Shown piece after piece: positions 10,853-61,614 of a stretch of DNA of 64,000 nucleotides; positions within the stretch are counted from its first letter, which is position 1, and each line of letters begins with the position of its first letter. Location: the sequence record CP019900.1, one strand, 5' to 3'. The notes beneath the pieces were generated by a model that was given only the letters and a program-made list of their open reading frames with translations, searched no databases and was not told the DNA's origin. The position numbers were made by a program, and so were the translations under genes. This DNA comes from a plasmid.

Positions 10853-10958
10853 GGAAGACGACAGGTCTAACCATCAGCGCGATTGCCCGTGAATTCAATA
10901 CTACACGACAGACCATTCTCAGAGTAAGAGCGGCAATGGAAGACTCTAACCCTTTGTA
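10849..10958 (+). pseudogene. remnant of a serine recombinase (resolvase/invertase) C-terminal helix-turn-helix
   Basis: The 36-aa ORF MRKTTGLTISAIAREFNTTRQTILRVRAAMEDSNPL carries the typical resolvase HTH signature (SAIAREFNTTRQTILRV). No catalytic domain is present. Confidence 0.5.
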
Positions 10959-11149
10959 GATAATTGCTTTTTCAATGAATCGCGCCGTTTATGCTCTTGT
11001 GCTTGATGCCCGCGGGTAGGAGTTAGTACTTAAAGGTATAGGTCAATTTCGCCGGAACACTTGCGCTGGAATGGGATAAAGATGAGATGTGCCGCGCTCG
11101 CTGATATCTGAAAACTGACGAAGGGCAACATCACTTTATATCCTTAAAA

Positions 11150-11182
11150 TAAAAGAAAAGCCGACCATAGGTCGGCTACGCA
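11150..11182 (-). terminator. rho-independent terminator downstream of the minus-strand oxidase operon
   Basis: AGCCGACC-ATA-GGTCGGCT hairpin followed (on the minus strand) by a T-run (plus-strand aaaagaaaagccgaccataggtcggcta). Confidence 0.55.
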
Positions 11183-11230
11183 AATTAGCGATGCAGCGAA
11201 CATACATTTAAAACATCATATATGGAGCAT

Positions 11231-12622
11231 TTAGTCGTCTACTTGTAGAGAGATAATTTCACCCAACGTGACAGGTTTCAGCGGTGGTCGAATACGGTAA
11301 AAATCCTGCTGCGTAACCTGACGTTTCTGTTCTGAGGCGATGATATTGGCAATGGTGTATCCACATTGCCTGCCCTGACAGGGGCCCATGCCCGCGCGTG
11401 TAAACGCCTTCAGCTGGTTTATGCCCGGTGAGGCCAGAGCGGCCGCCCGCCGGATGTCGCCGGCGGTGAGTTCTTCGCACCGGCACACAATGGTTTCGTC
11501 CGCCGGTGAGACCAGACGCTGAGGAGGCGGGTAAAGGGCATCAAGCATGGGGCGAATCCCCAGCAGTTTCTTCAACCTTAACCGTAACGGCAGTGCCAGC
11601 GCATCTGCCTTTTTCTGCGCCAGAAGGCCGGCCCGGAGAGCAATGCCCAGCGCCACAATTTCGCCGCGTGTACAGGCCGCCAGTCCGCCGCCAATACCGG
11701 CGCCGTCTCCGGCAACAGAGATGCCAGCAATACTGCCTCTTCCCCAGATATCAAGCGTGGGCACCAGGCAGTTCTGCTGATGACTCCAGTGATGTTGCAA
11801 CCCCAGCGATCGCGTCACGTGAACAGACGGGACAACACCTTCGTGCACAAGCACGGCATTCACGCTGACCCGTCGGGTCACACCACTGGAAAGGGTATAT
11901 TCCAGTTCCTGAAGACGGCCTTCACCCAGCGCGCGGAAAGACTGAATGCCACGAATGCGACGCGTACCGGAGCGCTTTATCTGGTTCAGCCAGACGAGAC
12001 CTTTGAGAATGTCTTTACGACCCCAGAATGCCTCCCTGAGCCAGGGAAGCGCACGGCGCCATTCTCCGGGCGCGCTGGTATCGAGCCAGCCCTCTATAGT
12101 GCCGCCTGCCCGGATAACCTGAGCCATGTAAAGAATGGGAAGGGGACCACTCCCGACGACCCAGGTCGGGCCTTCAGGTATCTGTCTGGCATTTTTCAGC
12201 AGGATCTGTGCGCCGCCCACCGGCATTACGCCGGGCAGCGTCCATCCCGGGAACGGCGCAGGTCTTTCCTGTGCGCCGGTGGCCAGAACAATCTCTTTGG
12301 CCTCAACGGATTCAGTTTTCCCGTCCCTGCGAAGAAATACCCGCCATGAAGGCTCTAACTGCCAGACCTGGGTGTTGGGCTCATAAACGGCTCCACAGGC
12401 CCTGAAATCAGCTGCCACTGAAGCACCTGATTCATACTCTTTACCCAGGATCTGTCCCAGAGGCGAACCGGCAACACCTTCAATATTGCGCCAGAGCTGG
12501 CCGCCCGGTCCCGGCTGTTCATCCACGACCAGCACTGACAGTCCGAACGTCCGCATCCGGATCGCCGCACTCATTCCTGCCGGTCCCGCGCCAACGACAA
12601 TCACATCAAATTTGCGGCTCAT
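11231..12622 (-). CDS. FAD/NAD(P)-binding oxidoreductase with C-terminal BFD-like [2Fe-2S] region; opine oxidase subunit A-like / HcnB-like
   Basis: N-terminal dinucleotide fold DVIVVGAGPAGMSAAIRM. C-terminal CRCEELT...GMGPCQGRQC cysteine motif. ATGA overlap with the upstream small gene. Confidence 0.7.
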   Translation of the reverse strand: MSRKFDVIVVGAGPAGMSAAIRMRTFGLSVLVVDEQPGPGGQLWRNIEGVAGSPLGQILGKEYESGASVAADFRACGAVYEPNTQVWQLEPSWRVFLRRDGKTESVEAKEIVLATGAQERPAPFPGWTLPGVMPVGGAQILLKNARQIPEGPTWVVGSGPLPILYMAQVIRAGGTIEGWLDTSAPGEWRRALPWLREAFWGRKDILKGLVWLNQIKRSGTRRIRGIQSFRALGEGRLQELEYTLSSGVTRRVSVNAVLVHEGVVPSVHVTRSLGLQHHWSHQQNCLVPTLDIWGRGSIAGISVAGDGAGIGGGLAACTRGEIVALGIALRAGLLAQKKADALALPLRLRLKKLLGIRPMLDALYPPPQRLVSPADETIVCRCEELTAGDIRRAAALASPGINQLKAFTRAGMGPCQGRQCGYTIANIIASEQKRQVTQQDFYRIRPPLKPVTLGEIISLQVDD

Positions 12623-12918
12623 TTGTTCAGACTCCGGCGGCCCATCTGGCGCTCAACATGCATATTGTCCTCAACGGTGACCAGACAGGTCTGAACCGAT
12701 CCCTGTCCGTTAACCACGGCCAGACAGTCAAAACAGACGCCCATCATGCAGTAAGGGGCCCGTTCGCTCATCTGTACCGGCGTGGTCCGGCTCATCAGTT
12801 TGCTCTGGCGTAGCAGGACGGCAGCGACGGTTTCGCCTGCTTCCGCTTCCGTTGCCACTCCGTCGATATAGATAACAAGCTTTTGAGAGCCGGCTGGCTG
12901 ATTAAGCTTCCTGAACAT
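12619..12918 (-). CDS. small [2Fe-2S]-binding subunit (HcnA / OoxA-N-terminus-like)
   Basis: MFRKLNQP...VIYIDG...ETVAAVL...RAPYCMMGVCFDCL cysteine cluster. The start was chosen at the internal Met (12918); the longer ORF (..13038) would overlap the upstream gene by 137 bp. Confidence 0.6.
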   Translation of the reverse strand: MFRKLNQPAGSQKLVIYIDGVATEAEAGETVAAVLLRQSKLMSRTTPVQMSERAPYCMMGVCFDCLAVVNGQGSVQTCLVTVEDNMHVERQMGRRSLNK

Positions 12919-14029
12919 GGAACCGTCCGTAATGAAAAGGTGAAAGGCTGTCCGGGTAGGTGTCGCCTGATGCCAGGATCCGCGCGTACTGGCTGGCGTG
13001 GAAAGACGCCAGGGTGACGCCGGAGTGGCACACGGCAAGATGCGCGCCCGGGCAGGTTACAGAAGAGGCATATACCGGGCTGCCGTCTGGCGTCATGATC
13101 CGCAGAGCGGACCACTGCCGGACTATTTTTGCGCCTGAGAGCGCAGGCAGTGTCTTTATCGCTCTCGCCGCCATACGGGTTGCACCGGCAGTGGTTGTCG
13201 AGAGGTCAAACCCCACATCTTCATGCGTGGCACCGATCATCACGGTTCCTTCAGCAGTCTGACGAATTTCGCCTGATGGCAGTGGAAGGAACGATGCCAG
13301 CCTTTCTGTGACAAGCAACTGGCCGCGAAGGGGGGCGACGGGAGCTTCAAGCCCCACCATTGGTGCCAGCGTTACGTTACCCAGCCCTGCAGCCAGCAGG
13401 ACTTGACCCGAACGGAAACTCGCATGCTCTGTGATGACCTCAAAGCCACCGTCTGCAAGGGATGAAATCTGTCTGACGCGGCTGTTATTCTGAATAAAGC
13501 CACCGCGCAGTAGAAAGGCTTTATGAAGCGCCGAAAGCAGGCGCAGTGGATTGACGTGTCCGTCAGTCGGGCCGAAACACGCACCCACAACGTCTTTGCC
13601 CAGCCTGATATCGGGAAAGCGGGCGTTCAGTTCGCTGCGGCGTAACATCTGGACTGGATGCGAGAGTTCCGGCATCTGAGCAATCCACTCACTCATCTCA
13701 CGGGAAAAGTTGGAAAATTCTTCTTCGCTCAGGCAAAACTCCAGCCCACCATTATTTTCATAATTGAGGGTGAGCCCGCTTTCGTCTTCGAGCTCCCGGG
13801 CAAAGGCGGGCCATTGTGAGACCGCCTCCACGGAGAGGCGCTGATAGGCCGGATCCCCAAGCCCTTTACCTGCTGACCAGACGAGACCAAAGTTCGCTTT
13901 AGCGGCCCGGAGATCCGTGTCTTCGGCATCCAGCATCAGAACGCGAAGCGGCAGCTTTGATAGTCCCCAGGCGATAGCTGCGCCAGTCATACCAGCACCC
14001 ACAACTATCAGGTCATACTCACGTTGCAT
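12902..14029 (-). CDS. FAD-dependent oxidoreductase (DadA/glycine-oxidase fold); opine oxidase subunit B-like / HcnC-like
   Basis: N-terminal YDLIVVGAGMTGAAIAWGL Rossmann motif, ~375 aa. First gene of a three-gene operon. Confidence 0.7.
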   Translation of the reverse strand: MQREYDLIVVGAGMTGAAIAWGLSKLPLRVLMLDAEDTDLRAAKANFGLVWSAGKGLGDPAYQRLSVEAVSQWPAFARELEDESGLTLNYENNGGLEFCLSEEEFSNFSREMSEWIAQMPELSHPVQMLRRSELNARFPDIRLGKDVVGACFGPTDGHVNPLRLLSALHKAFLLRGGFIQNNSRVRQISSLADGGFEVITEHASFRSGQVLLAAGLGNVTLAPMVGLEAPVAPLRGQLLVTERLASFLPLPSGEIRQTAEGTVMIGATHEDVGFDLSTTTAGATRMAARAIKTLPALSGAKIVRQWSALRIMTPDGSPVYASSVTCPGAHLAVCHSGVTLASFHASQYARILASGDTYPDSLSPFHYGRFHVQEA

Positions 14030-14779
14030 TATGCGGAGTTCCTACAGGCTGAATAATAAACAGTGCTGCTGTCTGGTACTGAACGAGTAAACGGCCAAGG
14101 GTAGTCCACTGGCCTTGAGTAAAAGACAACAAATTGTCCGGGTCTTTTACAGTGTTTTCTCGGGAGCCCAGAAATACAGGTGCTGCGTGACAGGATGCTT
14201 GCGAGGTTATACAGCTTCGGCACCGCAGTCATGGATATGAAACAGCGTGAAGAATGCCAATTCAAATGAGTTTCAGAAGGACTTTCATGCGTAAATGTTA
14301 TGCATGCATTAAACCGGGCTAGGCCTTGCTGAATACAGTTATTTAATCGTTGTTTTTTCAAAGAAAAATTCATAATTTCTTCAGGGCAATAAAAAATCAT
14401 ACTTGTTGCTGAGGGCCATAGTGTTTTCTTATCTGACGAATGAGTTAAAGAAAAGCTCGTTACTGAATGTTTTTGAGGGATGAGTCTATCATTCTGATAT
14501 TAATTGATATTTGTCCCATGAAACCTGACTGGACACATTGTATTAGTTTCGGGCATAACATTCACTCATGACAGCCATCTTATTTTTTATTATTCAGTAA
14601 ACAGGCTTCGTGGCAACACTGCTGACAGGTTTTAAACGTTAATGAAACCATGAAAAAGACTAATTTCACGAAATTATTCTTCCCAATAAAACCGCATCTG
14701 TAAAAAAACAACTTTAAACAAGGCACGGTCAATAAGCCGCACTGACTTTCTATTTTATTCAACATGAAAGGCCATAATT

Positions 14780-15610
14780 ATGAAATTTGCTATTGCAACC
14801 CTGTTTGCTGCTGCTGCGTTTTCAACTTTTTCAACTTATGCGCAGGATACTATTCAGATTGCTACTGAAGGGGCTTATAAACCTTGGTCGTTCGTCAATG
14901 ACAGCGGCAAGCTGGATGGTTTTGAAATTGACCTCACAAATGCGCTTTGCGCACGAATTAAGGCTGAATGCAAAGTATCAGCTCAGAACTGGGATGGGAT
15001 GATCCCGGCACTCAAATCAGGCAAGTTTGATGCGATCGTAGCGGCAATGACGATTACGCCAAAGCGACAGGAAGTTATCGGATTTTCCGAAGCTTACGCA
15101 GCGTCACCTAATACGTTTATGGTGCTAAAAGATGGTCCTCTTGCGAACATGAAATCGACCGGAAAAACGTTCGATCTGTCAGACGCTGGAAACATGGCTG
15201 ATGCAGAACTGGCTAATATGGCACGGGAACTCAGGGGAAAAACGGTTGGCGTTCAGGTGTCCACAACAGCGGCCTCTTTCCTGCACGACAAATTAAAAGG
15301 GGTAGAGGTTCGTGAATATAAAACGTTTGATGAGTCTGAACTTGATTTGCTTGCCGGACGCGTTGACGCAGTCATGGCAAACATCACCGTATTGAGTGAT
15401 GCGCTCAAACGGAAAGATGCAAGTATTGCCCAGCTTGCCGGTCCTACGCTGGTGGGGTCGCCGTTTAACTCTGTTGCAATAGGACTGCGTAAAGAAGATG
15501 CTGCACTGAAATCTCAGCTGGATGCCGGAATTAAATCTCTGCGTGACGACGGCACAATTAAAAAACTCAGTGAGAAATGGTTCGGGGTGGATCTTTCTCC
15601 TCGCTCCTGA
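14780..15610 (+). CDS. periplasmic substrate-binding protein, polar amino acid / opine (HisJ-ArgT-OccT) family
   Basis: Signal peptide MKFAIATLFAAAAFSTFSTYA, then QDTIQIATEGAYKPWSF...GFEIDL...FDAIVAAMTITPKRQ, the type-II SBP pattern. Divergent from the oxidase operon. Confidence 0.85.
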   Translation: MKFAIATLFAAAAFSTFSTYAQDTIQIATEGAYKPWSFVNDSGKLDGFEIDLTNALCARIKAECKVSAQNWDGMIPALKSGKFDAIVAAMTITPKRQEVIGFSEAYAASPNTFMVLKDGPLANMKSTGKTFDLSDAGNMADAELANMARELRGKTVGVQVSTTAASFLHDKLKGVEVREYKTFDESELDLLAGRVDAVMANITVLSDALKRKDASIAQLAGPTLVGSPFNSVAIGLRKEDAALKSQLDAGIKSLRDDGTIKKLSEKWFGVDLSPRS

Positions 15611-15809
15611 GATGAAGAGTGTTGCTGCAATTTTAAATCAGCAGGCTGGCGCACGTCGTCAGCCTGTTAACCTTCATATCCTGATTCTCCCGCGCTGGGC
15701 TGTTCGAAAATACTCCCTGCATGTTCATTTAAGAGGAGGATGAATGCACCCGATAAGCACACTGGACTCTTTCATAGTATTTAGTTATGACCCTCTCGCT
15801 GGATGCGCG

Positions 15810-16721
15810 CTACTCTTTGGGGAGCATCAGCTCTTCCTGTAAAAATCTCCAGAATCCATCTGAAAACTCCGTTGTCAAATCACCCCGGCGGGATTCCACC
15901 GCGCTAAGCTCCGTGAAACCCGCTTCAAGAGAGGGTTCAAAACGTCTGATGATCAGTCCTCTGTCCAGAAACTCGGATGCAGCAAAGTGGTCGATAACGG
16001 CAATAGCCCCACCTTCGAGCACGATTGAACAGGCCGTCAGTGACTGGTTGGTTTCAATCGTTGATGTGCGTTCGATACCCTCAAGAATCAGACTCAGTCT
16101 TTTTGAATAGGTTGAGCCGGGATCCACTTCGATGATGTTTTCACCAATAAGATCGCTGCGGGTCAGCACCATTTTTTCAGCCAGCGGGTGGCCTTGCGGC
16201 AGGGCCACCACGGCATCAATTGAACGCTGGCGACAAAGCATACCTGCACGGTTGAACTGAAAATCCACATAGCCCAGTTCAGCATCACCCGAGGCGACTT
16301 TTTCGATAACAGCGGGTGACGTCGCTGCTTCGAGAGAGACGTGCAGACCTTTTCGGCCCCGGACAAAGCGCCCTACATAGCGCGCAAGCATACCCGCTGC
16401 CAGAGCTGGCATGGCAAATATTCGCAGCGTACCGGCGAAGTTACGACCAATATCCTGCGCCGCACGTCCTATCCGGTCCAGTCCCACAAAGGCACTCTGT
16501 ACTTCCCGCATTAACGTGAACGCAGCCGGCGTCGGAAGCAGCCGGTTGCCGCGCCGATCAAACAGATGAAGATTAGTTGCCCTTTCAAAATCGGCAATCA
16601 GCCGGCTGACGGCGGGCTGAGTCACAAACATGAGCTCGGCCGCGGCGGTTATCTGTCCTGTCAGCATTACTGCCCGGAATGCTTCGACCTGTCTTAGATT
16701 TAGGCGGTGCGTCTGGTGCAT
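15810..16721 (-). CDS. LysR-type transcriptional regulator, OccR/NocR-like
   Basis: The N-terminus [55 protein letters not shown] closely follows the recalled N-terminus of Agrobacterium OccR ([39 protein letters not shown]...). Confidence 0.8.
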   Translation of the reverse strand: [303 protein letters not shown]

Positions 16722-17003
16722 AACATCTCCTTATGACGCAATTCTCCTGTACCGGTAAAATCCTTGAATCCTGTGAGCAGAGATCTGTAAAGCTACAGGT
16801 GAATACAGTAAGGAGGAGTTGAGGTCATAAATAATCAGTATTCAGCTCAAACTAACACCAAAATCCCACGTGATTCAATGTGTAATAGGAAGCATAATAT
16901 TTAGTAATGCAAGGTCGGCAAATTTTGATTTTTCACATTCGCCATTCCGTTGCAACACTGCTGTAACAGTGAATAAGCATTTGTGCAATACGAAGGTTGA
17001 GCT

Positions 17004-17723
17004 ATGTCGATATTTGAACTTTTCTCGTTCGGAGAGGGAGGGTGGGGTTATCTGCTGCTGAGTGCGTTGATAACCACGCTTGGCCTCGCTATCGCAGGGA
17101 TGTGCCTGGGTGCAGTGTTTGGCATTTGTGGCGCGCTTTCTGCCTTATCTGGCATACACGTGTTGCAAGCCTTGACCCGTGTTTACACCACTATTATGAG
17201 GGGCATTCCCGATCTGCTCGTTGTTTATTTGTTTTACTTCGGGTCATCAAGCGCTCTGACAGCGATAGCACATTTGTTCGGGGCAAAGGGATTTGTCGGA
17301 GCGCCGGAATTTGCCATTGGCGTCTTTGCGCTGGGGATTGTTTCGGGTGCTTACCTTACGGAAGTTTTCCGTGGAGCGATTCAGGCTATCGATAAAGGTG
17401 AAATAGAGGCTGCGCTGGCTTTTGGCATGCGCCTTCGCCAGCGAATGGTTCGGATTGTTCTGCCACTTGCCTTCCGACATGCACTGTCCGGGATTGGTAA
17501 TGTCTGGCAGATGGTTCTGAAAGAAACGGCGTTGCTGTCTGTCATTGGCGTGGTCGAACTTATGCGACAGTCGCAAATTGCCGGCGGTTCAACGCACAAA
17601 TATTTTACGTTCTACCTGGCGGCCGCGCTGATTTACTTCGCTATTTCATGGATATCAGGGCGTGGTTTTGCCCGCGCAGAAAAATATACCATGCGATCCC
17701 TTAACCGCAATTCAGGGCAATAA
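17004..17723 (+). CDS. ABC transporter permease (HisQ/OccQ-like)
   Basis: Polar amino acid permease with EAA-like loop (GAYLTEVFRGAIQAIDKGEIEAALAFGM). Confidence 0.85.
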   Translation: MSIFELFSFGEGGWGYLLLSALITTLGLAIAGMCLGAVFGICGALSALSGIHVLQALTRVYTTIMRGIPDLLVVYLFYFGSSSALTAIAHLFGAKGFVGAPEFAIGVFALGIVSGAYLTEVFRGAIQAIDKGEIEAALAFGMRLRQRMVRIVLPLAFRHALSGIGNVWQMVLKETALLSVIGVVELMRQSQIAGGSTHKYFTFYLAAALIYFAISWISGRGFARAEKYTMRSLNRNSGQ

Positions 17724-17725
17724 AC

Positions 17726-18445
17726 ATGCTAAACGAAGCCACGTTCATCTATGAAATGTTTATTCGCATGCTGCCCGGTATTCCTCTGACACTGCAGCTT
17801 GCAGCAACGTCTATTGCATGCGGTGGTTGCCTTGGGCTGGTGCTGGCCCTGATGCGAACCTCAGGCTGGGCATTGCTGGATGCATTTGCGCGTGCCTACA
17901 TCGCCCTTTTCCGTGGAACCCCACTTCTTGTCCAGATTTACCTGATTTATTACGGTCTGAGCCAGTACCCTGAGCTGCGGTCCAGTGTGCTTTGGCCGCT
18001 CCTGCGCCAGCCATGGTGGTGTGCTGTTCTGGCGATGTCACTGAATACGGCAGCGTACGTCGCGGAGATTATTCGCGGCTCAATTATCACCGTGCCAAGA
18101 GGGCAGGTTGAAGCCGCCATGGCTTGTGGCATGAGCACCGTACTGATGTACCGCCGCATCATTATCCCACAGGCTCTGGTTCGCATGCTCCCAGCATATG
18201 GCAATGAAATCATCCTGATGGTGAAAGCCACCGCCCTGGCCTCAACAATCACGCTGATGGAGGTCACGGGGCTTGCAGCACAGGCGATTTCAGAAACCTA
18301 TCGCCCGGTCGAAGTTTTTGCCGCTGCCGGTGTTATTTATCTGGGACTGAATTTCCTGATGGTCAGCATTATTCGGTTGCTTGAGAAAAAGACCTCAACG
18401 GAGGCATCGTCCGGGAAACAAACGCTCAAACGAAGCTATTTCTGA
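17726..18445 (+). CDS. ABC transporter permease (HisM/OccM-like)
   Basis: Second permease, tightly coupled (3-bp gap). Motif AAYVAEIIRGSIITVPRGQVEAAMACGM. Confidence 0.85.
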   Translation: MLNEATFIYEMFIRMLPGIPLTLQLAATSIACGGCLGLVLALMRTSGWALLDAFARAYIALFRGTPLLVQIYLIYYGLSQYPELRSSVLWPLLRQPWWCAVLAMSLNTAAYVAEIIRGSIITVPRGQVEAAMACGMSTVLMYRRIIIPQALVRMLPAYGNEIILMVKATALASTITLMEVTGLAAQAISETYRPVEVFAAAGVIYLGLNFLMVSIIRLLEKKTSTEASSGKQTLKRSYF

Positions 18446-18545
18446 TTTCGCCAACCCGGTGATGTTTACAGCCGGGAGTTTACCGGCACGCTGCGTTCCA
18501 GCGTGCCGATTGAAACCAACATCACAAAAAAATCAGGACAGTAAA

Positions 18546-19382
18546 ATGAAACTAGCCCTTGCCACACTCATTGCCATTCTCTCCGCAGCAGCAGTTCCTG
18601 CACAGGCTCAGGACACCATTAAAATTGCAACCGAAGCCTCTTTTGCCCCCTGGTCCTTTACCAACGCATCAGGAAAGCTTGATGGATTTGAAATTGAATT
18701 TGCAGATGCGCTGTGCACCCGTATTCAAGCGAAGTGCCTGGTCAGCAACCAGAGCTGGGATGGTCTGATCCCCTCGCTGAATGCCGGAAAATACGATGCG
18801 ATTGTTGCCTCTATGAGCATTACGCCGAAACGCCTGGAGGTTATTGACTTCTCTTCACCTTACGCTGCCTCCACTAACTCGTTCCTGGTTTTAAATGGAA
18901 GCCCTGCAGGCGATTTAGACTCCACCGGCATCAACCTGGGTCTGGAAGCGGATAAAGAAAAAGCTGATAAAGCCATCGGAATTATCGATAAACAACTGAG
19001 TGGAAAAATCGTTGGGGTACAGGCTTCAACCACGGGAGCCACATTCATGGCATCACGCTTACCGTCAGCTGAAGTGCGCGAATACAAGACCATGGATGAA
19101 GCCACGATGGATCTTGCTGCTGGCCGTATTGATGCGCTGCTGGGCAACGTCACTGTACTGCAGACGTCGCTTAAGCGGGACGATATGAAAGATGCGAAGC
19201 TGACCGGTCCGCTCTTCCAGGGTAAAGCTTTCGGGGAAGTGGGCATCGGACTGCGTAAGGGCGACAGCGCGCTTAAAGAACAGCTTAATAGCGGAATTAA
19301 ATCACTGAGTCAGGACGGTACCCTCAAAAAGCTGAGCATCAAATGGTTTGGTGTGGATATAACACCGTCTGCCGTTAAATAA
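18546..19382 (+). CDS. second periplasmic substrate-binding protein, paralog of 14780..15610
   Basis: MKLALATLIAILSAAAVPAQAQDTIKIATEASFAPWSF...GFEIEF... The start was set at the Met preceded by AGGACA. The longer listed ORF (from 18381) reads through from the permease gene. Confidence 0.85.
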   Translation: MKLALATLIAILSAAAVPAQAQDTIKIATEASFAPWSFTNASGKLDGFEIEFADALCTRIQAKCLVSNQSWDGLIPSLNAGKYDAIVASMSITPKRLEVIDFSSPYAASTNSFLVLNGSPAGDLDSTGINLGLEADKEKADKAIGIIDKQLSGKIVGVQASTTGATFMASRLPSAEVREYKTMDEATMDLAAGRIDALLGNVTVLQTSLKRDDMKDAKLTGPLFQGKAFGEVGIGLRKGDSALKEQLNSGIKSLSQDGTLKKLSIKWFGVDITPSAVK

Positions 19383-19446
19383 AAAAGCAATCGCAAAATA
19401 TTAATTAAATTTATTTTTGATATCGCTTCCTTGTATGTGTCATTTA

Positions 19447-19474
19447 ATGGCCTGCATGCAGGCCTATTTTTTAT
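19447..19474 (+). terminator. rho-independent terminator after the transporter genes
   Basis: Perfect palindrome GGCCTGCATGCAGGCC followed by TATTTTTTA. Confidence 0.6.
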
Positions 19475-19606
19475 AGTTACAGGGTTGCCGAAACAAATAA
19501 GAGTCATATTCACACGCAAAAAGTATATGCGTAATGAGGGGCGCAGATTGCTGATACCCTACAGGGTTTCCTGCGCCTGAAATAAGACAGAATACTGAGG
19601 TTCATC

Positions 19607-20836
19607 GTGAACGAGACGAATATTCAACGCAGTAATTTCGACAGCCTGATGGTTCCCGCTTATTCGCCAGCAGAATTTATTCCCGTAAGAGGAAAAGGTT
19701 CCCATCTCTGGGATCAGGCCGGTAATCAGTATATAGACCTTGCTGGTGGCATCGCGGTTAATGCCTTGGGACACGCCCATCCCGTAGCCGTTCAGGCGCT
19801 GCAGGAGCAGGGCAATCTTCTCTGGCACCTCGGTAACGGTTATACCAATGAACCGGTATTGCGTCTGGCAAAACAACTGACAGAGTCAACCTTTGCCGAT
19901 AAAGCCTTCTTCTGCAATTCCGGTGCAGAGGCCAATGAGGCGGCACTGAAGCTGGCCCGTAAGGTGGCGCGCGATAACGGCCAGCCAGGTAAAACCGGCA
20001 TTATTGCCTTTAACAATGCCTTTCATGGGCGCACCCTGTTTACCGTGAGCGCCGGTGGTCAGCCAAAATACTCCGAAGAGTTCGCACCGTTACCACAGGG
20101 CATTGAACACGTGCCTTATAACGACCTGGCGGCAGTCGCTGACCTGATCAGCAACGAAACCTGCGCGGTAATTGTTGAGCCGGTTCAGGGGGAAGGTGGT
20201 GTTCTCCCGGCTGACGCGGATTTTCTGCAGGGACTGAGAGCACTGTGTGACAAGCATAAGGCACTGCTCATTTTCGATGAAGTGCAGACAGGCGTGGGAC
20301 GTACCGGTGACCTCTATGCGTATATGGCCTATGGCGTTGTGCCTGATGTGCTGACCACGGCAAAAGCGCTGGGTGGTGGATTTCCGATCGGCGCAATGCT
20401 GACCACTGATGCACTGGCGGCATCTATGTCCCCTGGAACGCACGGCACGACATACGGTGGCAATCCGCTGGCGTCAGCGGTGGCTGGCGCCGTATTTAAC
20501 TTCATCAATACGCCTGAAGTGCTTGAGGGCGTTCGTGAACGACACCGCTATTTTGTTGAGGGCATTTCGCGCCTCAACGAGAAATTCGGTGTGTTTACCG
20601 AAATCCGCGGCGCAGGCCTGCTGCTCGGTTGCCAGATGGAAAGCCGGTTTAGTGGCAAAGCGAAGCAGCTCACAACGCTTGCCAGCGAAGAAGGATTGCT
20701 TTTGCTGATTGCCGGGCCGAACGTCGTGCGTCTCACGCCTTCCCTGATCATTCCGTTTGCTGACATCGATGAGGGACTTCACCGTCTTGAGCGCGCGATG
20801 ACCCGATTCGTTGCAACACAGGCACCGCAGTCATGA
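19607..20836 (+). CDS. astC: succinylornithine transaminase
   Basis: Collinear with E. coli AstC/ArgD family ([13 protein letters not shown]...[19 protein letters not shown]...[11 protein letters not shown]...[11 protein letters not shown]...[12 protein letters not shown]). ATGA overlap with astA. Confidence 0.9.
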
Positions 20837-21857
20837 TGCTTATCCGCCACGCGGAACCCCGCGATCTGGATGATTTGCTGATTCTGGCTGAAAAAGCCGG
20901 ATTCGGACTGACGTCACTGCCGGTCAATGACGTCACGCTGGCCGCACGCATCGAACGTGCACGAAAAACGCTGCGCGGAGAGCTCGATAAAATGGATCAG
21001 GGCTATGTGCTGGTGCTGGAAGATACGGCGGTTGGCCGCGTGGTGGGTATCAGTGCCATTGAGGTGGCCGTTGGTCTCTCTGAGCCCTGGTATAACTTCC
21101 GCGTCGGCAATCAGGTTCATGCCTCAAGAGAACTCAGTGTATATAAGGCGATGCCTACGCTCTATCTGAGTAATGACTTAACCGGTCACAGCGAGCTCTG
21201 CACGCTTTTCCTGGACCCGGATTACCGGCACAGCCACAACGGCAAGCTCCTGTCCAAAATCCGTTTGCTGTTTATTTCGGCGTTCCGTGAGCACTTTTCT
21301 CCCAAAGTCATTGCGGAGATGCGCGGCTACTCTGATGAGAACGGGCGCTCTCCGTTCTGGGCCGCGCTCGGACAGCACTTTTTCAACATGGACTTTGTCC
21401 GGGCAGACTACCTCAGCGGTACCGGGCAGAAGGCGTTTATCGCAGAACTGATGCCGCGAAACCCGCTATATATCGACTTCCTGCCCGCTGATGCCCGTGA
21501 AGTCATCAGCGTGGTGCATCCACACACGGAACCCGCCAGAAAGCTGCTCGAAGCTGAGGGCCTGAGCTATCAGGGATTCGTAGATATCTTTGATGGTGGC
21601 CCCACGCTTGAGGCTGAACTCAGCAAGCTCCGGGTGATGCGTGAAAGCAAATGTCTCCGGGCTGTCTGCGGCCAGCCGCCGGCCGAGGGGGTGCTTTGTC
21701 TGGTTTCAAACACAAACTACCTGAACTATCGCGCTGTTCTCAGCACTTTCACCCCAGAAGCAGACACCGTTGCTCTGACCGAGGCTGACTGCGACGCTCT
21801 TGGCATCGGTGAAGGGGATCAGGTTCACATCGTTGCGCTCAACTCACGGGAAACATT

Positions 21858-21861
<4 letters not shown>
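20833..21861 (+). CDS. astA: arginine N-succinyltransferase
   Basis: [12 protein letters not shown]...GLTSLP...LSARIERA...GYVLVLED...EPWYNFRVG...[12 protein letters not shown]...[13 protein letters not shown]...IFDGGPTLE matches AstA. Confidence 0.9.
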
Positions 21862-23334
<1,473 letters not shown>

Positions 23335-23335
<1 letters not shown>

Positions 23336-24684
23336 TGGAGCCAATCATGTCAGGAACTGAAGTCAATTTTGATGGGCTGGTAGGCCCGACGCACCACTAT
23401 GCGGGGCTGTCCTTCGGGAATGAAGCGTCCACCAGGTACCGTAATACCGTTGCCAATCCCAGGCTGGCGGCAAAGCAGGGGCTGATGAAAATGAAGGCCC
23501 TTGCCGATATGGGCATGATCCAAGGGGTGATGGCTCCGCATGAACGCCCCCATATTCCTCAGCTGCGCAGGCTGGGATTCAGCGGCAGCGATGAGGCCAT
23601 TTTGCAGCAGGCGATGCGGTATTCGCCTCAGTTGTTATCAGCCCTGTGCTCGGCCTCTTCCATGTGGACGGCGAATGCGGCAACGGTCTCGCCATCAGCG
23701 GACAGCCGGGATGGTCGTGTCCACTTCACGGCGGCGAATCTGAATAACAAGTTCCATCGCTCGATAGAGCCGGAGACGACCTCCGCGCTTCTGCGCGCCA
23801 TGTTCCGAAGCGAGGCCCATTTCGCACATCACGATTCCCTCCCGCAGGTGGCAATGATGGGGGATGAAGGGGCGGCCAACCATAACCGACTTGGTGGAGA
23901 CTATGGTTCGAAAAGCGTTCAGGTCTTCGTATACGGCCAGCATATGCTCGGCTCTGTGCCGGGGCCTTCCCGTTATCCTGCCCGTCAGACACGCGAGGCC
24001 AGCGAAGCAATAGCCCGGCTGCATCAGCTGGATCCGGATTACACCGTGTTTGTGCAGCAAAACCCTGACGTCATCGATCAGGGGGTGTTCCATAACGACG
24101 TGATAGCCGTCAGCAATCAGCAGGTGCTCTTTGTGCACCAGCAGGCTTTTCTGCAGCAGGCGTCGGCGCTGGATGAAATACGTCGCAAAGTCGCGCTGAC
24201 CGGGCGTGAGCTGGTCACGATTGAGGTTCCATCAGACAGCGTTTCGGTCCCGGAGGCGGTGAGCACCTATCTTTTCAACAGCCAGCTGCTGACGCGCCGT
24301 GACGGGGGTATGACGCTGGTTGTGCCTGAAGAATGCCGTCAGAATCCGCGCGTCTGGGCATATCTGTCAGAAATGACGTCAACCACGCCGGTGGACCAGG
24401 TCTGTGTGTTTGATCTGAGGGAGAGTATGCGTAACGGCGGCGGACCCGCGTGCCTGCGTCTGCGCGTGGCGCTGACGGAGCAGGAACTGTCCGCTGTAAA
24501 CCCAGATGTGCTCCTTGATGACGCTCTGTACAGCAGGCTGGACCGCTGGATTGAGCGCCACTATCGCGACCGGCTGACCCAGGAAGATTTGGCCGATCCT
24601 TCACTGCTACGGGAAAGCCGTACGGCTCTGGATGAACTGACCATCATTCTCGGGCTGGGGTCTGTTTATCCGTTCCAGCAATAA
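23335..24684 (+). CDS. astB: N-succinylarginine dihydrolase
   Basis: [24 protein letters not shown]...[18 protein letters not shown]...NLNNKFHRS...ANHNRLGG...[13 protein letters not shown]...[11 protein letters not shown]...[11 protein letters not shown] matches AstB. The true start may be the Met at 23347. Confidence 0.9.
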
Positions 24685-24729
24685 ACGTAACCCCGGCAGG
24701 CCTATCTGTCCGGGTGCAGGAGTACAGCA

Positions 24730-25731
24730 ATGAATTTTTTCCTGGAAGATACTCTCCGGAGCACCATACCTCAGCTTCAGAGAGGAGAGAGGCAAAATCT
24801 GCACTGGCGCTGGCTGGGGGAGGGGATCATGGAGTTGACCCCGACTACGGGATACCGGGAGTCCGTGGTTATTTCGGCGGGGATACACGGAAATGAAACG
24901 GCACCAATTGAGCTGCTGGATCTTATTCTGAGCGATTTGCTCTCCGGAAAGCTGGCACTGCGCGTACGTCTTCTGGTTATCCTGGGTAATCCTCCCGCTA
25001 TGCGTGCTGGTAAGCGATATCTGTCGACGGATATGAACCGTATGTTCAGCGGGCGCCATAAAGATTTTACGCCCAGTTACGAAACAGAGCGCACGCGCAA
25101 ACTGGAAGCCGTGATGACAGCTTTCTGGTCAACAAGCTCATCGGTAAAGGGCGCCTCTCGTTTCCACTACGATTTACACACGGCGATTAAAGGCTCCCAT
25201 CTGCCGCGCTTCGGTTTGCTTCCCTTCCAGAACCGCCCATATCACCGTGAACTGTTAAAACGACTTGAAGCAGCCGATCTGGATGCTCTGGTAATGCACC
25301 AGGAGACCGGAAATACCTTCAGTCACTTTAGCAGTGAGCAGTTTCTGGCAGAGAGTTGCACGCTGGAGTTGGGCAAAGCGAATCCTTTTGGTGAAAACAA
25401 GCTATCGGATTTCAGGGCAATAGACCGTGTGCTTCGGGCCCACCTTGGTGGCCTGCCGTTTCCGCACAGAAGTTTGCCACCGGTACGCCTCTTCCGGGTG
25501 GATCGTACGCTTGTCAAACATGCCGATGACTTTGAGCTGGGGGTGCCTTCAGAGACGCTTAATTTCACTCAATTTGAAAAAGGTGCAGTCCTGTGCCGGG
25601 AAAATGGTTCTGAACAGCGCGTTGAAAACGATCAGGAGTGGATGCTCTTTCCAAACCCCGGTGTTCAGACCGGTATGCGGGCGGGGCTGATGCTGACGGA
25701 ACTTAACCGATGGGTTCATTCTTCGCCCTAA
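24730..25731 (+). CDS. astE: succinylglutamate desuccinylase
   Basis: WRWLGEGIMELTP...ISAGIHGNETAPIE...LLVILGNPPAMRAGKRY...DMNRMF...HYDLHTAI...CTLELGKA...LMLFPNP matches AstE. Confidence 0.9.
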   Translation: MNFFLEDTLRSTIPQLQRGERQNLHWRWLGEGIMELTPTTGYRESVVISAGIHGNETAPIELLDLILSDLLSGKLALRVRLLVILGNPPAMRAGKRYLSTDMNRMFSGRHKDFTPSYETERTRKLEAVMTAFWSTSSSVKGASRFHYDLHTAIKGSHLPRFGLLPFQNRPYHRELLKRLEAADLDALVMHQETGNTFSHFSSEQFLAESCTLELGKANPFGENKLSDFRAIDRVLRAHLGGLPFPHRSLPPVRLFRVDRTLVKHADDFELGVPSETLNFTQFEKGAVLCRENGSEQRVENDQEWMLFPNPGVQTGMRAGLMLTELNRWVHSSP

Positions 25732-25772
25732 AGACCGCATTTCATGAATATTCGATTTACCGGGGAAAACCT

Positions 25773-26546
25773 ATGTCAGAAACAAAATTAGTTGTAACCG
25801 AACTGCACAAGAAATATGGCGAACATGAAGTTCTCAAAGGGGTATCCCTCACGGCCAGTTCAGGTGATGTGATATCAATCATCGGGTCATCCGGTTCGGG
25901 TAAAAGCACGTTTTTACGCTGTATCAATTTCCTTGAAAAACCCAGTGAGGGAACGATTCGAATTGGCAATACAGATGTTGGTCTGGTTCGAGACAAAGAT
26001 GGCGAACTTCGGGTCTTTGATAAAAATCAGCTGCAATTGTTAAGAACGCGCCTTGCCATGGTATTCCAGGGCTTCAATTTATGGAGCCACATGACGGTAC
26101 TGGAAAACGTCATGGAATGCCCTGTGCACGTTTTAGGCGTCAGTAAGGAAGAGGCCCGTAATAAGGCCGTAGCCTATCTGAATAAGGTCAATATCAGCGA
26201 GCAGGCTTTCAACCGACATCCATCTCAGTTATCTGGTGGACAGCAGCAACGCGTGTCCATTGCCCGTGCGCTGGCGATGGAGCCTGAAGTTATTCTGTTT
26301 GATGAACCTACGTCAGCACTGGATCCGGAGCTGGTAGGCGAGGTGCTTAAAATCATGCAGCAGCTTGCTGAAGAAGGGAAGACGATGATAGTGGTAACTC
26401 ACGAAATGGAGTTTGCACGCCATGTGTCGAACAAGGTGGTGTTTCTGCATCAGGGCAAAATTGAAGAGCAGGGCTCTCCACAAGAGTTATTTGATAATCC
26501 TAAGAGTCTGCGTCTTCAGCAGTTTTTATCAGGTTCACTGAAATAA
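25773..26546 (+). CDS. polar amino acid ABC transporter ATP-binding protein (HisP/OccP-like)
   Basis: Near-collinear with HisP (SIIGSSGSGKSTFLRCINFLEKPSEG...LSGGQQQRVSIARALAMEP...LFDEPTSALDPELVGEVL...VVTHEMEFARHVS). The start was set at the Met with a GGGGAAAAC ribosome-binding site. The listed ORF from 25710 is an upstream extension. Confidence 0.9.
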   Translation: MSETKLVVTELHKKYGEHEVLKGVSLTASSGDVISIIGSSGSGKSTFLRCINFLEKPSEGTIRIGNTDVGLVRDKDGELRVFDKNQLQLLRTRLAMVFQGFNLWSHMTVLENVMECPVHVLGVSKEEARNKAVAYLNKVNISEQAFNRHPSQLSGGQQQRVSIARALAMEPEVILFDEPTSALDPELVGEVLKIMQQLAEEGKTMIVVTHEMEFARHVSNKVVFLHQGKIEEQGSPQELFDNPKSLRLQQFLSGSLK

Positions 26547-26574
26547 ACCATTAATCAGTTTATCAGGAATAAAA

Positions 26575-26931
26575 ATGAGTAACGATATTCAAAGAATACA
26601 GAGTAATGAGCGTCTCAGTCGGGTTGTAGTCCACAACGGTATCGCCTATTTGTCAGGTGTGACAGCAAACGATACGACAACCGGCGTAATGGCGCAGACT
26701 TCGGATGTGTTGGGCAAGATTGATGCCTATCTCGAATTGGCTGGAACCGACAAATCCCGTCTTTTGTCCGTACAAATTTGGCTGAGGGATATCGACAGAG
26801 ATTTTGATGATATGAACAAAGCCTGGGCTCAATGGATACCAGAAGGGTCTGCACCTGCCAGAGCAACGGGTGAGGGCCGGCTGGCAGGTGCGGATATTTT
26901 GGTTGAAATGATTGTTACTGCTGCAATCTAA
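26575..26931 (+). CDS. RidA/YjgF-family enamine-imine deaminase-like protein
   Basis: 118 aa, ...VVVHNGIAYLSGV...LSVQIWLRDI...DFDDMNKAW...PARATGEGRLAGADILVEMIV, the RidA fold pattern. Confidence 0.75.
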   Translation: MSNDIQRIQSNERLSRVVVHNGIAYLSGVTANDTTTGVMAQTSDVLGKIDAYLELAGTDKSRLLSVQIWLRDIDRDFDDMNKAWAQWIPEGSAPARATGEGRLAGADILVEMIVTAAI

Positions 26932-27202
26932 TTCGTAAAAATAAATATTTTTTTAACCCTCGGCTGGAGATCCCGGCCGATAATGATTCTGAACCGAAAA
27001 TCCTTCTTCATTCAGTATCAGAGCCCCGGGCTTTATACATACTCCCCTATACGTTGACTAAGTTCTGATAACCACTATTAAAAAAATTTTCTGGGTTACT
27101 TTAGCTACTTTCCTCTCACTGTCTTTCATATCTAATTAAGTGATGACATAAAAGTATACCCTAATGTCACAACATGAATTTAACCTGTTTAGGGGGCTGA
27201 GG

Positions 27203-28259
27203 GGCTTTGTTGAATAAATCGAACTTTTGCTGAGTTGAAGGATCAGATCACGCATCTTCCCGACAACGCAGACCGTTCCGTGGCAAAGCAAAAGTTCAAA
27301 ATCACCAACTGGCCCACCTACAATAAAGCCCTCATCAACCGTGGCTCCATAACTTTCTGGCTGGATGATGAAGCTATTCAGGCCTGGTATGAGTCAGCAA
27401 CACCTTCTTCACGAGGCAGACCTCAGCGCTATTCTGACCTTGCCATCACGACTGTGCTGGTCATTAAACGCGTATTCAGGCTGACCCTGCGCGCTGCGCA
27501 GGGCTTTATTGATTCCATTTTTTCTCTGATGAACGTTCCGCTACGTTGCCCGGATTACAGCTGTGTCAGCAGGCGGGCAAAGTCGGTTAACGTCAGTTTC
27601 AAAACGTTCACCCGGGGTGAAATCGCGCATCTGGTGATTGATTCCACCGGGCTGAAGGTCTTTGGTGAAGGCGAGTGGAAAGTCAAAAAGCATGGCCAGG
27701 AACGCCGTCGTATATGGCGAAAGTTGCATCTGGCAGTTGACAGCAACACACATGAAATCATCTGTGCAGACCTGTCGCTGAACAATGTGACGGACTCAGA
27801 AGCCTTCCCGGGTCTTATCCGGCAGACTCACAGAAAAATCAGGGCAGCATCGGCAGACGGCGCTTACGACACCCGGCTCTGTCACGATGAACTGCGGCGT
27901 AAGAAAATCAGCGCGCTTATCCCTCCCCGAAAAGGTGCGGGTTACTGGCCCGGTGAATATGCAGACCGTAACCGTGCAGTGGCTAATCAGCGAATGACCG
28001 GGAGTAATGCGCGGTGGAAATGGACAACAGATTACAACCGTCGCTCGATAGCGGAAACGGCGATGTACCGGGTAAAACAGCTGTTCGGGGGTTCACTGAC
28101 GCTGCGTGACTACGATGGTCAGGTTGCGGAGGCTATGGCCCTGGTACGAGCGCTGAACAAAATGACGAAAGCAGGTATGCCTGAAAGCGTGCGTATTGCC
28201 TGAAAACACAACCCGCTACGGGGGAGACTTACCCGAAATCTGATTTATTCAACAAAGCC
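27203..28259 (+). mobile_element. IS903-like element, complete (1057 bp), flanked by 9-bp direct repeats GGGCTGAGG (27194..27202 and 28260..28268)
   Basis: Terminal inverted repeats GGCTTTGTTGAATAAATCG at both ends. The 9-bp target duplication is typical of IS903. It is inserted in a Tn3-family 38-bp inverted repeat. Confidence 0.92.
27235..28203 (+). CDS. IS903-family transposase
   Basis: Full-length Tnp (MKDQITHLPDNADRSVAKQKFKITNWPTYNK...). Confidence 0.92.
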   Translation: MKDQITHLPDNADRSVAKQKFKITNWPTYNKALINRGSITFWLDDEAIQAWYESATPSSRGRPQRYSDLAITTVLVIKRVFRLTLRAAQGFIDSIFSLMNVPLRCPDYSCVSRRAKSVNVSFKTFTRGEIAHLVIDSTGLKVFGEGEWKVKKHGQERRRIWRKLHLAVDSNTHEIICADLSLNNVTDSEAFPGLIRQTHRKIRAASADGAYDTRLCHDELRRKKISALIPPRKGAGYWPGEYADRNRAVANQRMTGSNARWKWTTDYNRRSIAETAMYRVKQLFGGSLTLRDYDGQVAEAMALVRALNKMTKAGMPESVRIA

Positions 28260-36670: not shown

Positions 36671-37033
36671 ATGAAAATGTTAACGGTGTTTGATCCGGCG
36701 ATGTGCTGCAGTACCGGCGTTTGTGGTTCAGATGTCGATCAGGTTTTGGTCAATTTTTCTGCTGATGTGCAATGGCTGAAAGGGCGTGGGGTTCAGATCG
36801 AACGTTATAACCTGGCGCAGTAGCCTATGAGCTTCGTTGAGAACGAAAAAGCGAAAGCATTCCTTGAGGCTTCTGGAGCTGAAGGGCTTCCGCTGCTGTT
36901 GCTTGATGGTGAAACGGTGATGGCCGGGCGATACCCAAAACGCGCTGAACTGGCTCGCTGGTTTGGTATACCGCTGGAAAAGGTGGGTTTAGCTTCCACC
37001 AGTTGCTGTGGTGGTAAAACTTCCTGTTGTTGA
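36671..37033 (+). pseudogene. arsD: arsenic metallochaperone gene with an in-frame amber codon (TAG at 36821..36823)
   Basis: MKMLTVFDPAMCCSTGVCG...VQIERYNLAQ*PMSFVENEK...SCCGGKTSCC. R773 ArsD has LAQQPMSF at this point, so this is a CAG to TAG change at codon ~51. Confidence 0.8.
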
Positions 37034-37050
37034 GTATGTCAGGAGGACAT

Positions 37051-38802: not shown

Positions 38803-38850
38803 TTTTTTTTGTATATACAGGGCGGCAAAGCCGTCCTGTCTGGAGGATTT

Positions 38851-61554: not shown

Positions 61555-61614
61555 AGAACAAAAGGCCTTAAACATCTGAATACCGTCTAATAGATTGAAT
61601 AAAAAGGAAATAAT

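Follow-up and report, generated by a model that had tools for sequence, protein, structure and literature searches.

A putative octopine-type opine catabolism island linked to arginine succinyltransferase genes on an IncF plasmid

General features of the island

Plasmid sequence CP019900.1 carries, in the stretch of 64,000 nucleotides analysed here (the window), a gene island of about 16 kb whose likely role we take to be the uptake and catabolism of opines of the octopine family, meaning N2-(1-carboxyethyl)-L-arginine and, probably, also octopinic acid or lysopine. The island is composed of the genes for a three-subunit dehydrogenase of the opine oxidase type, an OccR-like LysR-type regulator, an Occ-type ABC importer with two binding proteins, the enzymes of the arginine succinyltransferase (AST) pathway and a RidA-family deaminase. 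The same gene content emerges from the open reading frames (ORFs), from Pfam and NCBIfam and from the RefSeq annotation of plasmid NZ_CP098157.1, and all genes named in a first-pass annotation, which had proposed the opine function, were found at about the positions given there. That annotation had set the limits of the unit at 11231-26931; this span holds for the genes, while the foreign DNA itself is wider and extends, by homology to an Erwinia locus, from 11146 to 27169.

In the mechanism that we propose, the two OccJ-type binding proteins would capture the opine and pass it to the OccQ/OccM-like permeases, powered by a HisP/OccP-like ATPase. The membrane-associated OdhBCA enzyme would oxidise the secondary amine to an imine, hydrolysis of which would give L-arginine and pyruvate, and RidA probably makes this imine step faster or cleaner. 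AstA, AstB, AstC, AstD and AstE would then turn the arginine into glutamate, succinate, ammonia and CO2. The OccR-like regulator, whose gene is divergent from the permease genes, probably activates the system when the opine is present. Since the sole ATPase gene is located behind the ast genes, a working importer would depend on expression of the ast transcription unit.

A probable three-gene opine dehydrogenase

The oxidase part of the island comprises the following features:

11231..12622, minus strand: odhA-like gene, alpha subunit (463 aa) of a flavin-containing opine dehydrogenase; Pfam Pyr_redox_2, Fer2_BFD and SO_alpha_A3
12619..12918, minus strand: odhC-like gene, gamma subunit (99 aa), [2Fe-2S]; Pfam Fer2_4
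12902..14029, minus strand: odhB-like gene, beta (catalytic) subunit (375 aa), DAO family; Pfam DAO, 186 bits
11159..11177, minus strand: terminator-like hairpin just past the alpha subunit gene; 8-bp stem with 6 GC pairs, then a T-run

Oox/Nox-like enzymes are three-subunit flavin/[2Fe-2S] dehydrogenases encoded by overlapping ORFs in the order OdhB-C-A (Watanabe et al., PMC4575208), and the same tandem order of beta, gamma and alpha is present here, with overlaps of 17 nt and 4 nt. The beta subunit shares 40.6% identity with OoxB and 40.8% with NoxB, values equal to the identity of just 38-40% which experimentally supported opine dehydrogenases share among themselves (PMC4575208). For the alpha subunit the identity is higher with NoxA (46.8%) than with OoxA (39.4%), and the gamma subunit shows 42.5% identity to the short ORF that separates ooxB from ooxA. 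Conserved motifs are found in all three subunits: GAGMTG and R304-Q-W (R-x-W) in beta; C57-x4-C62-x2-C65-x12-C78 in gamma, which fits the C-x4-C-x2-C-x11-12-C of PMC4575208; and GAGPAG and C380-x-C382-x32-C415-x4-C420 in alpha, where the spacing is equal to that of OoxA and NoxA and longer than the x15-20 of PMC4575208.

The same three-subunit architecture is shared by hydrogen cyanide (HCN) synthase (HcnABC) and D-hydroxyproline dehydrogenase (LhpBEF), and the annotation of plasmid OW968447.1 names the subunits HcnB and HcnC. That the enzyme is one of these two is nevertheless extremely improbable. Its beta subunit shares only 25-26% identity with HcnC and 27% with LhpB of P. aeruginosa, as against the above values for OoxB and NoxB, and the island has no hydroxyproline epimerase, deaminase or other hydroxyproline genes. 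In a neighbour-joining tree the beta subunit is placed inside the OoxB/NoxB clade with 94% bootstrap support, as sister to NoxB (94.5%), with LhpB, HcnC and a type-2 OdhB outside this clade. The tree was built by this method only, from 19 sequences with 200 bootstraps; for HcnC and LhpB, bait sequences served only to find the proteins compared, which are database entries named HcnC and LhpB of P. aeruginosa by NCBI. The grouping with opine oxidases rather than with HCN synthase or hydroxyproline dehydrogenase, on which the first-pass annotation depended, is thus borne out, and the three-gene enzyme is predicted to be a type-1 flavin-containing opine dehydrogenase (OdhABC/OoxAB/NoxAB), not HcnABC or LhpBEF.

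A search of the PDB with the beta subunit returned only glycine and sarcosine oxidases, and no solved opine dehydrogenase, HcnC or LhpB. Relatives of the beta subunit at about 60% identity are common in beta- and gamma-proteobacteria, some of them labelled 'nopaline dehydrogenase'.

A D-hydroxyproline dehydrogenase reference was also sought on plasmid p4 of Azospirillum argentinense (NZ_CP032325.1) and rejected, the match being an OdhB1-C-A-B2 opine-type cluster in an unrelated neighbourhood. This cluster (377618-387075) has the four-gene layout described for Bradyrhizobium, a different ABC transporter operon upstream, and two RidA genes and a further binding protein gene downstream; it appears to be another opine-type locus.

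Binding proteins and ABC importer

The importer is encoded by five genes:

14780..15610, plus strand: binding protein 1 (276 aa), OccJ-type periplasmic opine-binding protein, of solute-binding protein family 3; OccJ 5ORE is the best solved relative
17004..17723, plus strand: occQ-like permease (239 aa), 55.3% identical to OccQ and 42.2% to NocQ
17726..18445, plus strand: occM-like permease (239 aa), 57.4% identical to OccM and 50.9% to NocM
18546..19382, plus strand: binding protein 2 (278 aa), OccJ-type periplasmic opine-binding protein; OccJ 5ORE is the first match
25773..26546, plus strand: ABC transporter ATPase (HisP/OccP/NocP type); NF007908 HisP, 488.9 bits, cutoff 466

Each permease is about 30% identical to the non-matching Occ permease. 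The ATPase is 61.2% identical to NocP and 57.1% to OccP. The two binding proteins, correctly recognised as paralogues from the start, are 55.8% identical to each other. Among solved structures, binding protein 1 matches OccJ 5ORE with an E value of 1.1e-83, NocT with 1e-59 and LAO/HisJ with 1e-35, and binding protein 2 matches OccJ 5ORE with 7.2e-81, followed by NocT at about 1e-59 and LAO/HisJ at about 1e-35. Identity to OccT is 53.3% for binding protein 1 and 48.7% for binding protein 2.

The first-pass annotation had also considered an opine-type metallophore as substrate. Systems for the metallophores staphylopine and pseudopaline have NikA/Opp-type binding proteins and Cnt genes. Both are absent here, the binding proteins are OccJ-type and keep the contacts to the arginine moiety, and this candidate was rejected.

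The high-affinity octopine signature of OccJ is composed of E30, Y33, W71, S91, R96, N111, Q159, T163, A164 and N202, residue 91 being decisive, with Ser in OccJ and Gly in NocT (Vigouroux et al., PMC5740067). Nine of the ten residues are conserved in binding protein 1, the sole change being S91T at the critical position, and eight of ten in binding protein 2, which keeps Ser91 and has the changes Y33F and A164G. Both proteins show the ketoacid signature S/T91, N111, T163, A/G164 and N202 and not the G-M-S-H-S of NocT, and both keep the residues for the pyruvate moiety which LAO lacks. By these residues both binding proteins clearly resemble OccJ and not NocT or LAO, and neither is a perfect match to the signature. 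The signature does discriminate, because the binding proteins of two related loci (the chromosome of Serratia sp. 1D1416 and a contig of SRR14517502) are 67-73% identical to NocT and carry the NocT-type signature instead. As the island pairs the same oxidase clade with OccJ-type proteins, oxidase and transporter modules have been shuffled. Two OccJ paralogues of Pantoea have been described, with lower affinity predicted from Gly91 (Vigouroux et al., PMC5740067); they may differ from those of this work, since the Pantoea and Erwinia proteins that we examined carry Thr91 and Ser91.

An alternative explanation is that the island serves mainly arginine and ornithine uptake coupled to the AST pathway, like the aot-aru genes of P. 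aeruginosa, with the oxidase and RidA acting on D-arginine, an N-methyl or other N-substituted amino acid or a glycation product from diet or host. Binding protein 2 lies at the cut-off of the NCBIfam LAO subfamily (256.1 against 256.35), OccJ itself binds arginine/ornithine-type amino acids (PMC5740067), RidA would also suit the imino acid product of a D-amino-acid dehydrogenase, and other Klebsiella plasmids have ast modules with His-type transporters and without an oxidase. Nevertheless both binding proteins are far closer to OccJ than to LAO/HisJ and retain the pyruvate-moiety residues, the regulator has an OccR-like effector domain, the oxidase is of the three-subunit type-1 opine dehydrogenase kind and not a homomeric D-amino-acid dehydrogenase, and transporter, oxidase and RidA together are the trio that makes up the occ operon. 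An arginine/ornithine island is for these reasons very unlikely.

Regulator and transcription units

The features relevant to expression of an octopine-type module are the following:

15810..16721, minus strand: OccR-like LysR-type regulator (303 aa), divergent from the transport genes
14030..14779 (no strand): divergent region of 750 bp between odhB and the gene of binding protein 1, with presumed promoters; minus-strand sigma-70-like matches at 14616-14589 and 14704-14676
16722..17003 (no strand): divergent promoter region between the regulator and the transport genes; sigma-70-like matches at 16733-16761 (plus) and 16921-16894 (minus)
19449..19464, plus strand: terminator-like hairpin between the gene of binding protein 2 and astC, GGCCTGCATGCAGGCC then TATTTTTTAT

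The regulator is 52.6% identical to OccR over 293 of its 303 residues, so that the resemblance noted earlier for the N-terminus includes the effector domain. Residues 97-298 match the ligand-binding domain structure of OccR (5VVH) with an E value of 2.6e-42, the next LysR-type regulator following at 4.8e-15, and the best-matching LysR-family regulator in the noc region of pTiC58 is only 33.9% identical.

No Rfam family was found in the 750-bp region 14030-14779, and none in 10800-27300 at E up to 0.1. A 123-aa ORF at 14029-14400 has no Pfam match and is unannotated in the sister plasmids. Weak TGAATAC(A/T)G elements are present at 14330, 16800 and 16839, i.e. in both divergent regions, two of them forming an inverted pair 32 bp apart before the permease genes. 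The Serratia and Ti counterparts lack them, and with 13 copies in 16 kb the hexamer shows no enrichment in the island; as candidates for regulator sites, with statistically weak support, they may be taken as a weak lead only. The gene of the ATPase, the only one in the island, is located 41 bp after astE, and no terminators are predicted between astC and the RidA gene. A sigma-54 promoter upstream of astC was considered and rejected, the best site (19537-19552) having 3 mismatches and the window holding 279 matches, fewer than the 334 expected from shuffled sequence.

AST genes and RidA

The arginine branch is encoded downstream of the transport genes:

19607..20836, plus strand: astC, succinylornithine transaminase; TIGR03246, 697.7 bits, cutoff 610
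20833..21861, plus strand: astA, arginine N-succinyltransferase; TIGR03244, 486.9 bits, cutoff 391
21858..23335, plus strand: astD, succinylglutamate-semialdehyde dehydrogenase, frameshifted here; the intact allele scores 813.7 bits with TIGR03240, cutoff 579
23347..24684, plus strand: astB, N-succinylarginine dihydrolase; TIGR03241, 787.2 bits, cutoff 538
24730..25731, plus strand: astE, succinylglutamate desuccinylase; TIGR03242, 419.3 bits, cutoff 306
26575..26931, plus strand: RidA-family imine/enamine deaminase (118 aa); annotated RidA in the sister plasmids, with Ribonuc_L-PSP on homologues

The Ast proteins share 58-65% identity with the enzymes of E. coli and 60-78% with the Serratia ones. 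For AstC, which had been estimated by eye at about 60% identity to its E. coli counterpart, the measured value is 64.8%.

In the octopine Ti plasmid pGV2260 a RidA gene is located directly after ooxA in the occ operon. Its product is 38.7% identical to the RidA of the island, and the 'PAR' motif with the conserved active-site arginine aligns between the two, as it does, taken as a guide only, with Arg105 of what we assume to be the E. coli RidA sequence. RidA genes are also present beside odhBCA on Agrobacterium pAt and Azospirillum p4, and RidA may on the strength of these three loci be considered a recurrent part of opine systems.

A different arginine-family module is found beside the yersiniabactin genes on plasmid pGN-2 (NZ_CP019161.1, 85466-97598) and on many Klebsiella virulence-type plasmids. 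It contains genes for an Lrp regulator, an ornithine cyclodeaminase, ctlX for citrulline utilisation, astC-astA-astD-astE without astB, hisQMP, a binding protein and alr. Between the astD of this module and that of the window the DNA identity is 73%.

Comparison with known systems

The authentic occ operon of pGV2260 is organised as occR / occQMPT-ooxB-[2Fe-2S]-ooxA-ridA-ocd. The island shares with it the divergent OccR-type regulator (52.6%), the OccQ/M permeases (55-57%), OccJ/T-type binding proteins with the octopine signature (49-53%), the three-gene flavin/[2Fe-2S] dehydrogenase (39-42%) and the accompanying RidA (38.7%). It differs in that arginine would be disposed of by the five-gene AST pathway, whereas Ti plasmids use arginase and ornithine cyclodeaminase. 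Further differences are the two paralogous binding proteins, the oxidase genes in a separate and oppositely oriented unit, the ATPase gene moved to the end of the ast genes, and the location in Enterobacterales on an IncF plasmid, without T-DNA, vir or a link to tra regulation.

The noc region of pTiC58 contains noxB-[2Fe-2S]-noxA, nocPTQM, arginase and ocd. To this region the dehydrogenase of the island is slightly closer (40.8% for beta, 46.8% for alpha), and the ATPase is closest to NocP (61%). In distinction to the noc region, the binding proteins of the island do not have the nopaline signature of NocT and the regulator shares only 33.9% identity with its best LysR-family member.

Outside Agrobacterium, the OdhABC enzymes of Pseudomonas putida KT2440 and Bradyrhizobium japonicum, which we likened to the island by their published description, have the same B-C-A order, overlapping ORFs and three subunits, the FAD motif (twice), the [2Fe-2S] motif (twice) and the R-x-W motif, and an adjacent ABC transporter (PMC4575208). 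The island does not have a nearby opine-synthase-like gene such as PP_4452 of P. putida and is, unlike that locus, linked to AST genes.

The chromosome of Serratia sp. 1D1416 (CP032738.1) holds astCADBE immediately next to a LysR gene, to odhBCA and to genes for an ABC transporter of the opine type, so that the link between oxidase and AST pathway is not unique to the island. Identity to the Serratia proteins is 61% for the beta subunit and 60-78% for the Ast proteins. The Serratia locus differs from the island in being chromosomal, in its single binding protein, in the divergent orientation of its ast operon and in its transporter, which is NocT-type (67% to NocT, with a nopaline-like signature) and contiguous including the ATPase.

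A physical link between a polar amino acid ABC importer and the succinyltransferase pathway also exists in the aotJQMOP-argR/aruCFGDBE genes of P. aeruginosa. These differ from the island in having no known oxidase, a LAO/AotJ-type binding protein and ArgR, of the AraC family, as regulator.

Origin and spread of the island

The borders of the island and the insertion next to it are as follows:

10866..11145 (no strand): junction of 280 bp between plasmid backbone and island, carrying the 3' remnant of a resolvase gene
10851-10961, overlapping the boundary of backbone and junction: 36-aa ORF, C-terminal helix-turn-helix remnant of a resolvase/recombinase; HTH_7 in sister contigs
27203..28259, plus strand: IS903B, 33 bp past the right end of the island; annotated IS903B in a sister plasmid

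Upstream of the island the gene order is traI-traX-finO-DUF6404, on an IncFIB/MOBF conjugative plasmid backbone. The location after finO, as first described, is confirmed by the finO gene at 8774-9370 (NCBIfam FinO, 266 bits). The F backbone, common to over 2000 Klebsiella F-type plasmids, can be followed by homology up to about 10865. The junction DNA is 80-87% matching to genes for 'recombinase family protein' on plasmids of Erwinia, Pantoea, Yersinia and Klebsiella, and the resolvase remnant may be a trace of the capture of the island. IS903B has the terminal inverted repeats GGCTTTGTTGAATAAATC and is flanked on both sides by the 9-bp target duplication GGGCTGAGG; having its own duplication, it represents a later simple insertion.

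Positions 11146-26727 of the window align in one block of 15.6 kb, with 91.2% DNA identity and the same gene order, to contig JBDFQQ010000013.1 of Erwinia billingiae, and the homology runs on to 27169. With the chromosome of Pantoea sp. YR343 the match is much closer over the oxidase (odh) part (90.9% identity) than over the ast part (77.5%); in this copy the regulator is truncated and the sequence of the gamma subunit is identical to that of the window. The Erwiniaceae source was located by exact cluster look-up, whereas a contig scan with binding protein 2 by a peptide-pattern method had returned only alphaproteobacterial relatives with at most 50% identity and missed it. By its nucleotide similarity the island DNA is of Erwiniaceae origin, from plant-associated relatives.

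The first-pass annotation had named three findings that would speak against an opine function: an oxidase of the HCN synthase or hydroxyproline dehydrogenase group, a regulator that does not align with OccR over the effector domain, and identity of the block with a known chromosomal arginine/ornithine locus of a close relative. None of the three came out against opine function, and the opine reading is supported. As to the last, the block is indeed chromosomal in relatives (Pantoea sp. YR343 and the E. billingiae contig), but it is not a known arginine/ornithine locus; being the same opine-type block, it points to where the island came from and is no refutation of its function.

The G+C content is about 0.57-0.58 in the oxidase genes, 0.45-0.52 in the regulator and transport genes, 0.56-0.59 in the ast genes and 0.48 in the ATPase and RidA genes. 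Together with the uneven identity to Pantoea, these swings suggest that the island was assembled module by module before it reached Klebsiella. In all six Klebsiella contexts sampled the island lies beside traX-finO-DUF6404, and the 36-aa resolvase remnant is kept in five of them; the shared junction argues for a single capture event. The block would thus have been assembled in plant-associated Erwiniaceae, captured once beside finO on a Klebsiella IncF plasmid and then spread.

Four complete plasmids match positions 11000-27200 over the full length at about 100% identity: K. oxytoca AP014952.1 and OW968447.1, K. pneumoniae NZ_CP098157.1 and Raoultella ornithinolytica NZ_CP013340.1. Every ORF is open in these four PLSDB copies of 16.2 kb, which are the only full copies among 72,556 complete plasmids. 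Public assemblies contain the exact regulator protein in 999 indexed blocks and the exact beta subunit on about 530 contigs; most of the Klebsiella copies sampled are intact. The carrier plasmids come from people, a dog and sewage.

Substrate and state of the pathway

A number of findings, collected in this section, weigh against an octopine module at work in Klebsiella. The key position 91 is occupied by Thr in binding protein 1, and binding protein 2 has the Y33F and A164G changes. No clear OccR-type operator (dyad T-N11-A) is present in 16722-17003. Because of the hairpin at 19449-19464, one transcript from the permease genes into ast is no more than a possibility. The ATPase gene is placed as first described, after astE, with no terminator predicted from astC to RidA.

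The real substrate of the same machinery could instead be nopaline, some other N2-(dicarboxypropyl) amino acid or a wide range of opines. Transport and regulation resemble Occ, whereas the dehydrogenase lies closer to NoxB/NoxA than to OoxB/OoxA; its beta subunit is the sister of NoxB in the tree, and the ATPase is closer to NocP than to OccP. The closest oxidase relatives, those of Serratia and the SRR14517502 contig with 61-78% identity in the beta subunit, adjoin binding proteins with the NocT signature. Nox reportedly also oxidises octopine, and a Nox-like enzyme would therefore be compatible with this substrate. The specificity of opine dehydrogenases is not readable from phylogeny (PMC4575208). 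Both binding proteins have the ketoacid signature of OccJ. OccJ shows no binding to nopaline and NocT-G97S no longer binds it, residue 91/97 restricting the volume (PMC5740067). The regulator likewise is far nearer to OccR than to the noc-region LysR. We consider nopaline or a broad opine mix an unlikely substrate in comparison with octopine-family opines.

Whatever its role in Erwiniaceae, the island could in Klebsiella be decaying, hitch-hiking cargo with no working pathway. Compared with NZ_CP098157.1, astD of the window has a 1-bp deletion (G7 to G6 at about 22601-22607) causing a frameshift and a stop at 22617-22619. The four sister plasmids have G7 and an intact AstD of 492 aa, and astD of Erwinia is intact too. 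Of the complete AST pathway that had been annotated, AstC, AstA, AstB and AstE stand, passing their NCBIfam cut-offs, and astD is broken in this copy; its arginine branch would thus depend on ast genes of the host chromosome. Klebsiella does have chromosomal ast genes, astA mutants of KPPR1 having been described (PMC12219000), so the plasmid genes may be redundant, which possibly explains why the astD lesion is tolerated. Assembly GCA_051091585.1 has the same split of astD into 253 + 237 aa, together with a split beta subunit gene and a truncated finO; in view of the split beta gene, G6 may be either real decay or a homopolymer sequencing error.

Two further copies are truncated. In CP025212.1 the decayed island ends inside the gene of binding protein 1, and in GCA_054525795.1 only the regulator, binding protein 1 and odhBCA are left, a Tn3-family transposon replacing the permease and ast genes. 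Both suggest relaxed selection in Klebsiella, and the rarity of full copies among complete plasmids also speaks for decay. On the other side are the 999 assembly blocks with the exact regulator, the intact state of most sampled copies and of the four nearly identical plasmids from K. oxytoca, K. pneumoniae and Raoultella, and the position of the astD change in a homopolymer. On balance decay is a possibility that we hold to be rather unlikely, though it deserves more weight than the other alternatives discussed.

Significance

Opine catabolism is the textbook case of a private nutrient engineered by a pathogen, and it is associated with the Ti/Ri plasmids of Agrobacterium and a small number of soil bacteria. 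Its occurrence outside Agrobacterium is already known from the Odh enzymes of P. putida and Bradyrhizobium (PMC4575208) and from an octopine-catabolising Pseudomonas with ooxAB, cited in PMC6700373. Octopine transport orthologues were noted in a P. ananatis pan-genome paper, and K10018-K10021 'octopine/nopaline transport' marker genes, in the order occ/nocTQMP, were reported in K. quasipneumoniae and K. variicola; we take the latter as a separate system, since their gene order differs from that of the island. Our literature search found no paper on this island, on its AST linkage or on opine oxidase genes on Klebsiella plasmids. In the island an Occ-type set for uptake, sensing and cleavage is joined to a different arginine disposal pathway, and the carriers are conjugative IncF plasmids of Klebsiella, K. 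oxytoca and Raoultella.

If the island works, cargo now labelled 'FAD-dependent oxidoreductase' or 'HcnB/HcnC' would acquire a function; if it fails in Klebsiella, it would be a dated example of the decay of metabolic cargo after a host jump. Gene flow from plant-associated Erwiniaceae into clinical plasmids is documented, and the naturally diverged OccR/OccJ pair could be used for biosensor or specificity studies. A speculative and improbable extension is that the island gives gut or clinical Klebsiella and Raoultella a private niche in the form of N2-carboxyalkyl-arginines met outside crown galls. Candidate sources would be octopine of dietary molluscs and cephalopods, plant material and glycation-derived carboxyethyl-amino acids. 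Were this so, conjugation would be distributing a trait of the 'opine concept', along with the resistance and metal-tolerance cargo of these plasmids, through Enterobacteriaceae associated with humans and animals.

Other genes of the window

The IncFII repA region comes next after IS903B, and the remainder of the window carries further cargo:

31488-33491: betT-type BCCT transporter
33554-34831: DUF2254 membrane protein
37027-38802: arsA
38809-40140: arsB
41758-44766 and 44828-47338: two Tn3-family transposase genes
51048-52079: IS630-like transposase
60121-62880: MFS_2 sugar transporter and alpha-galactosidase

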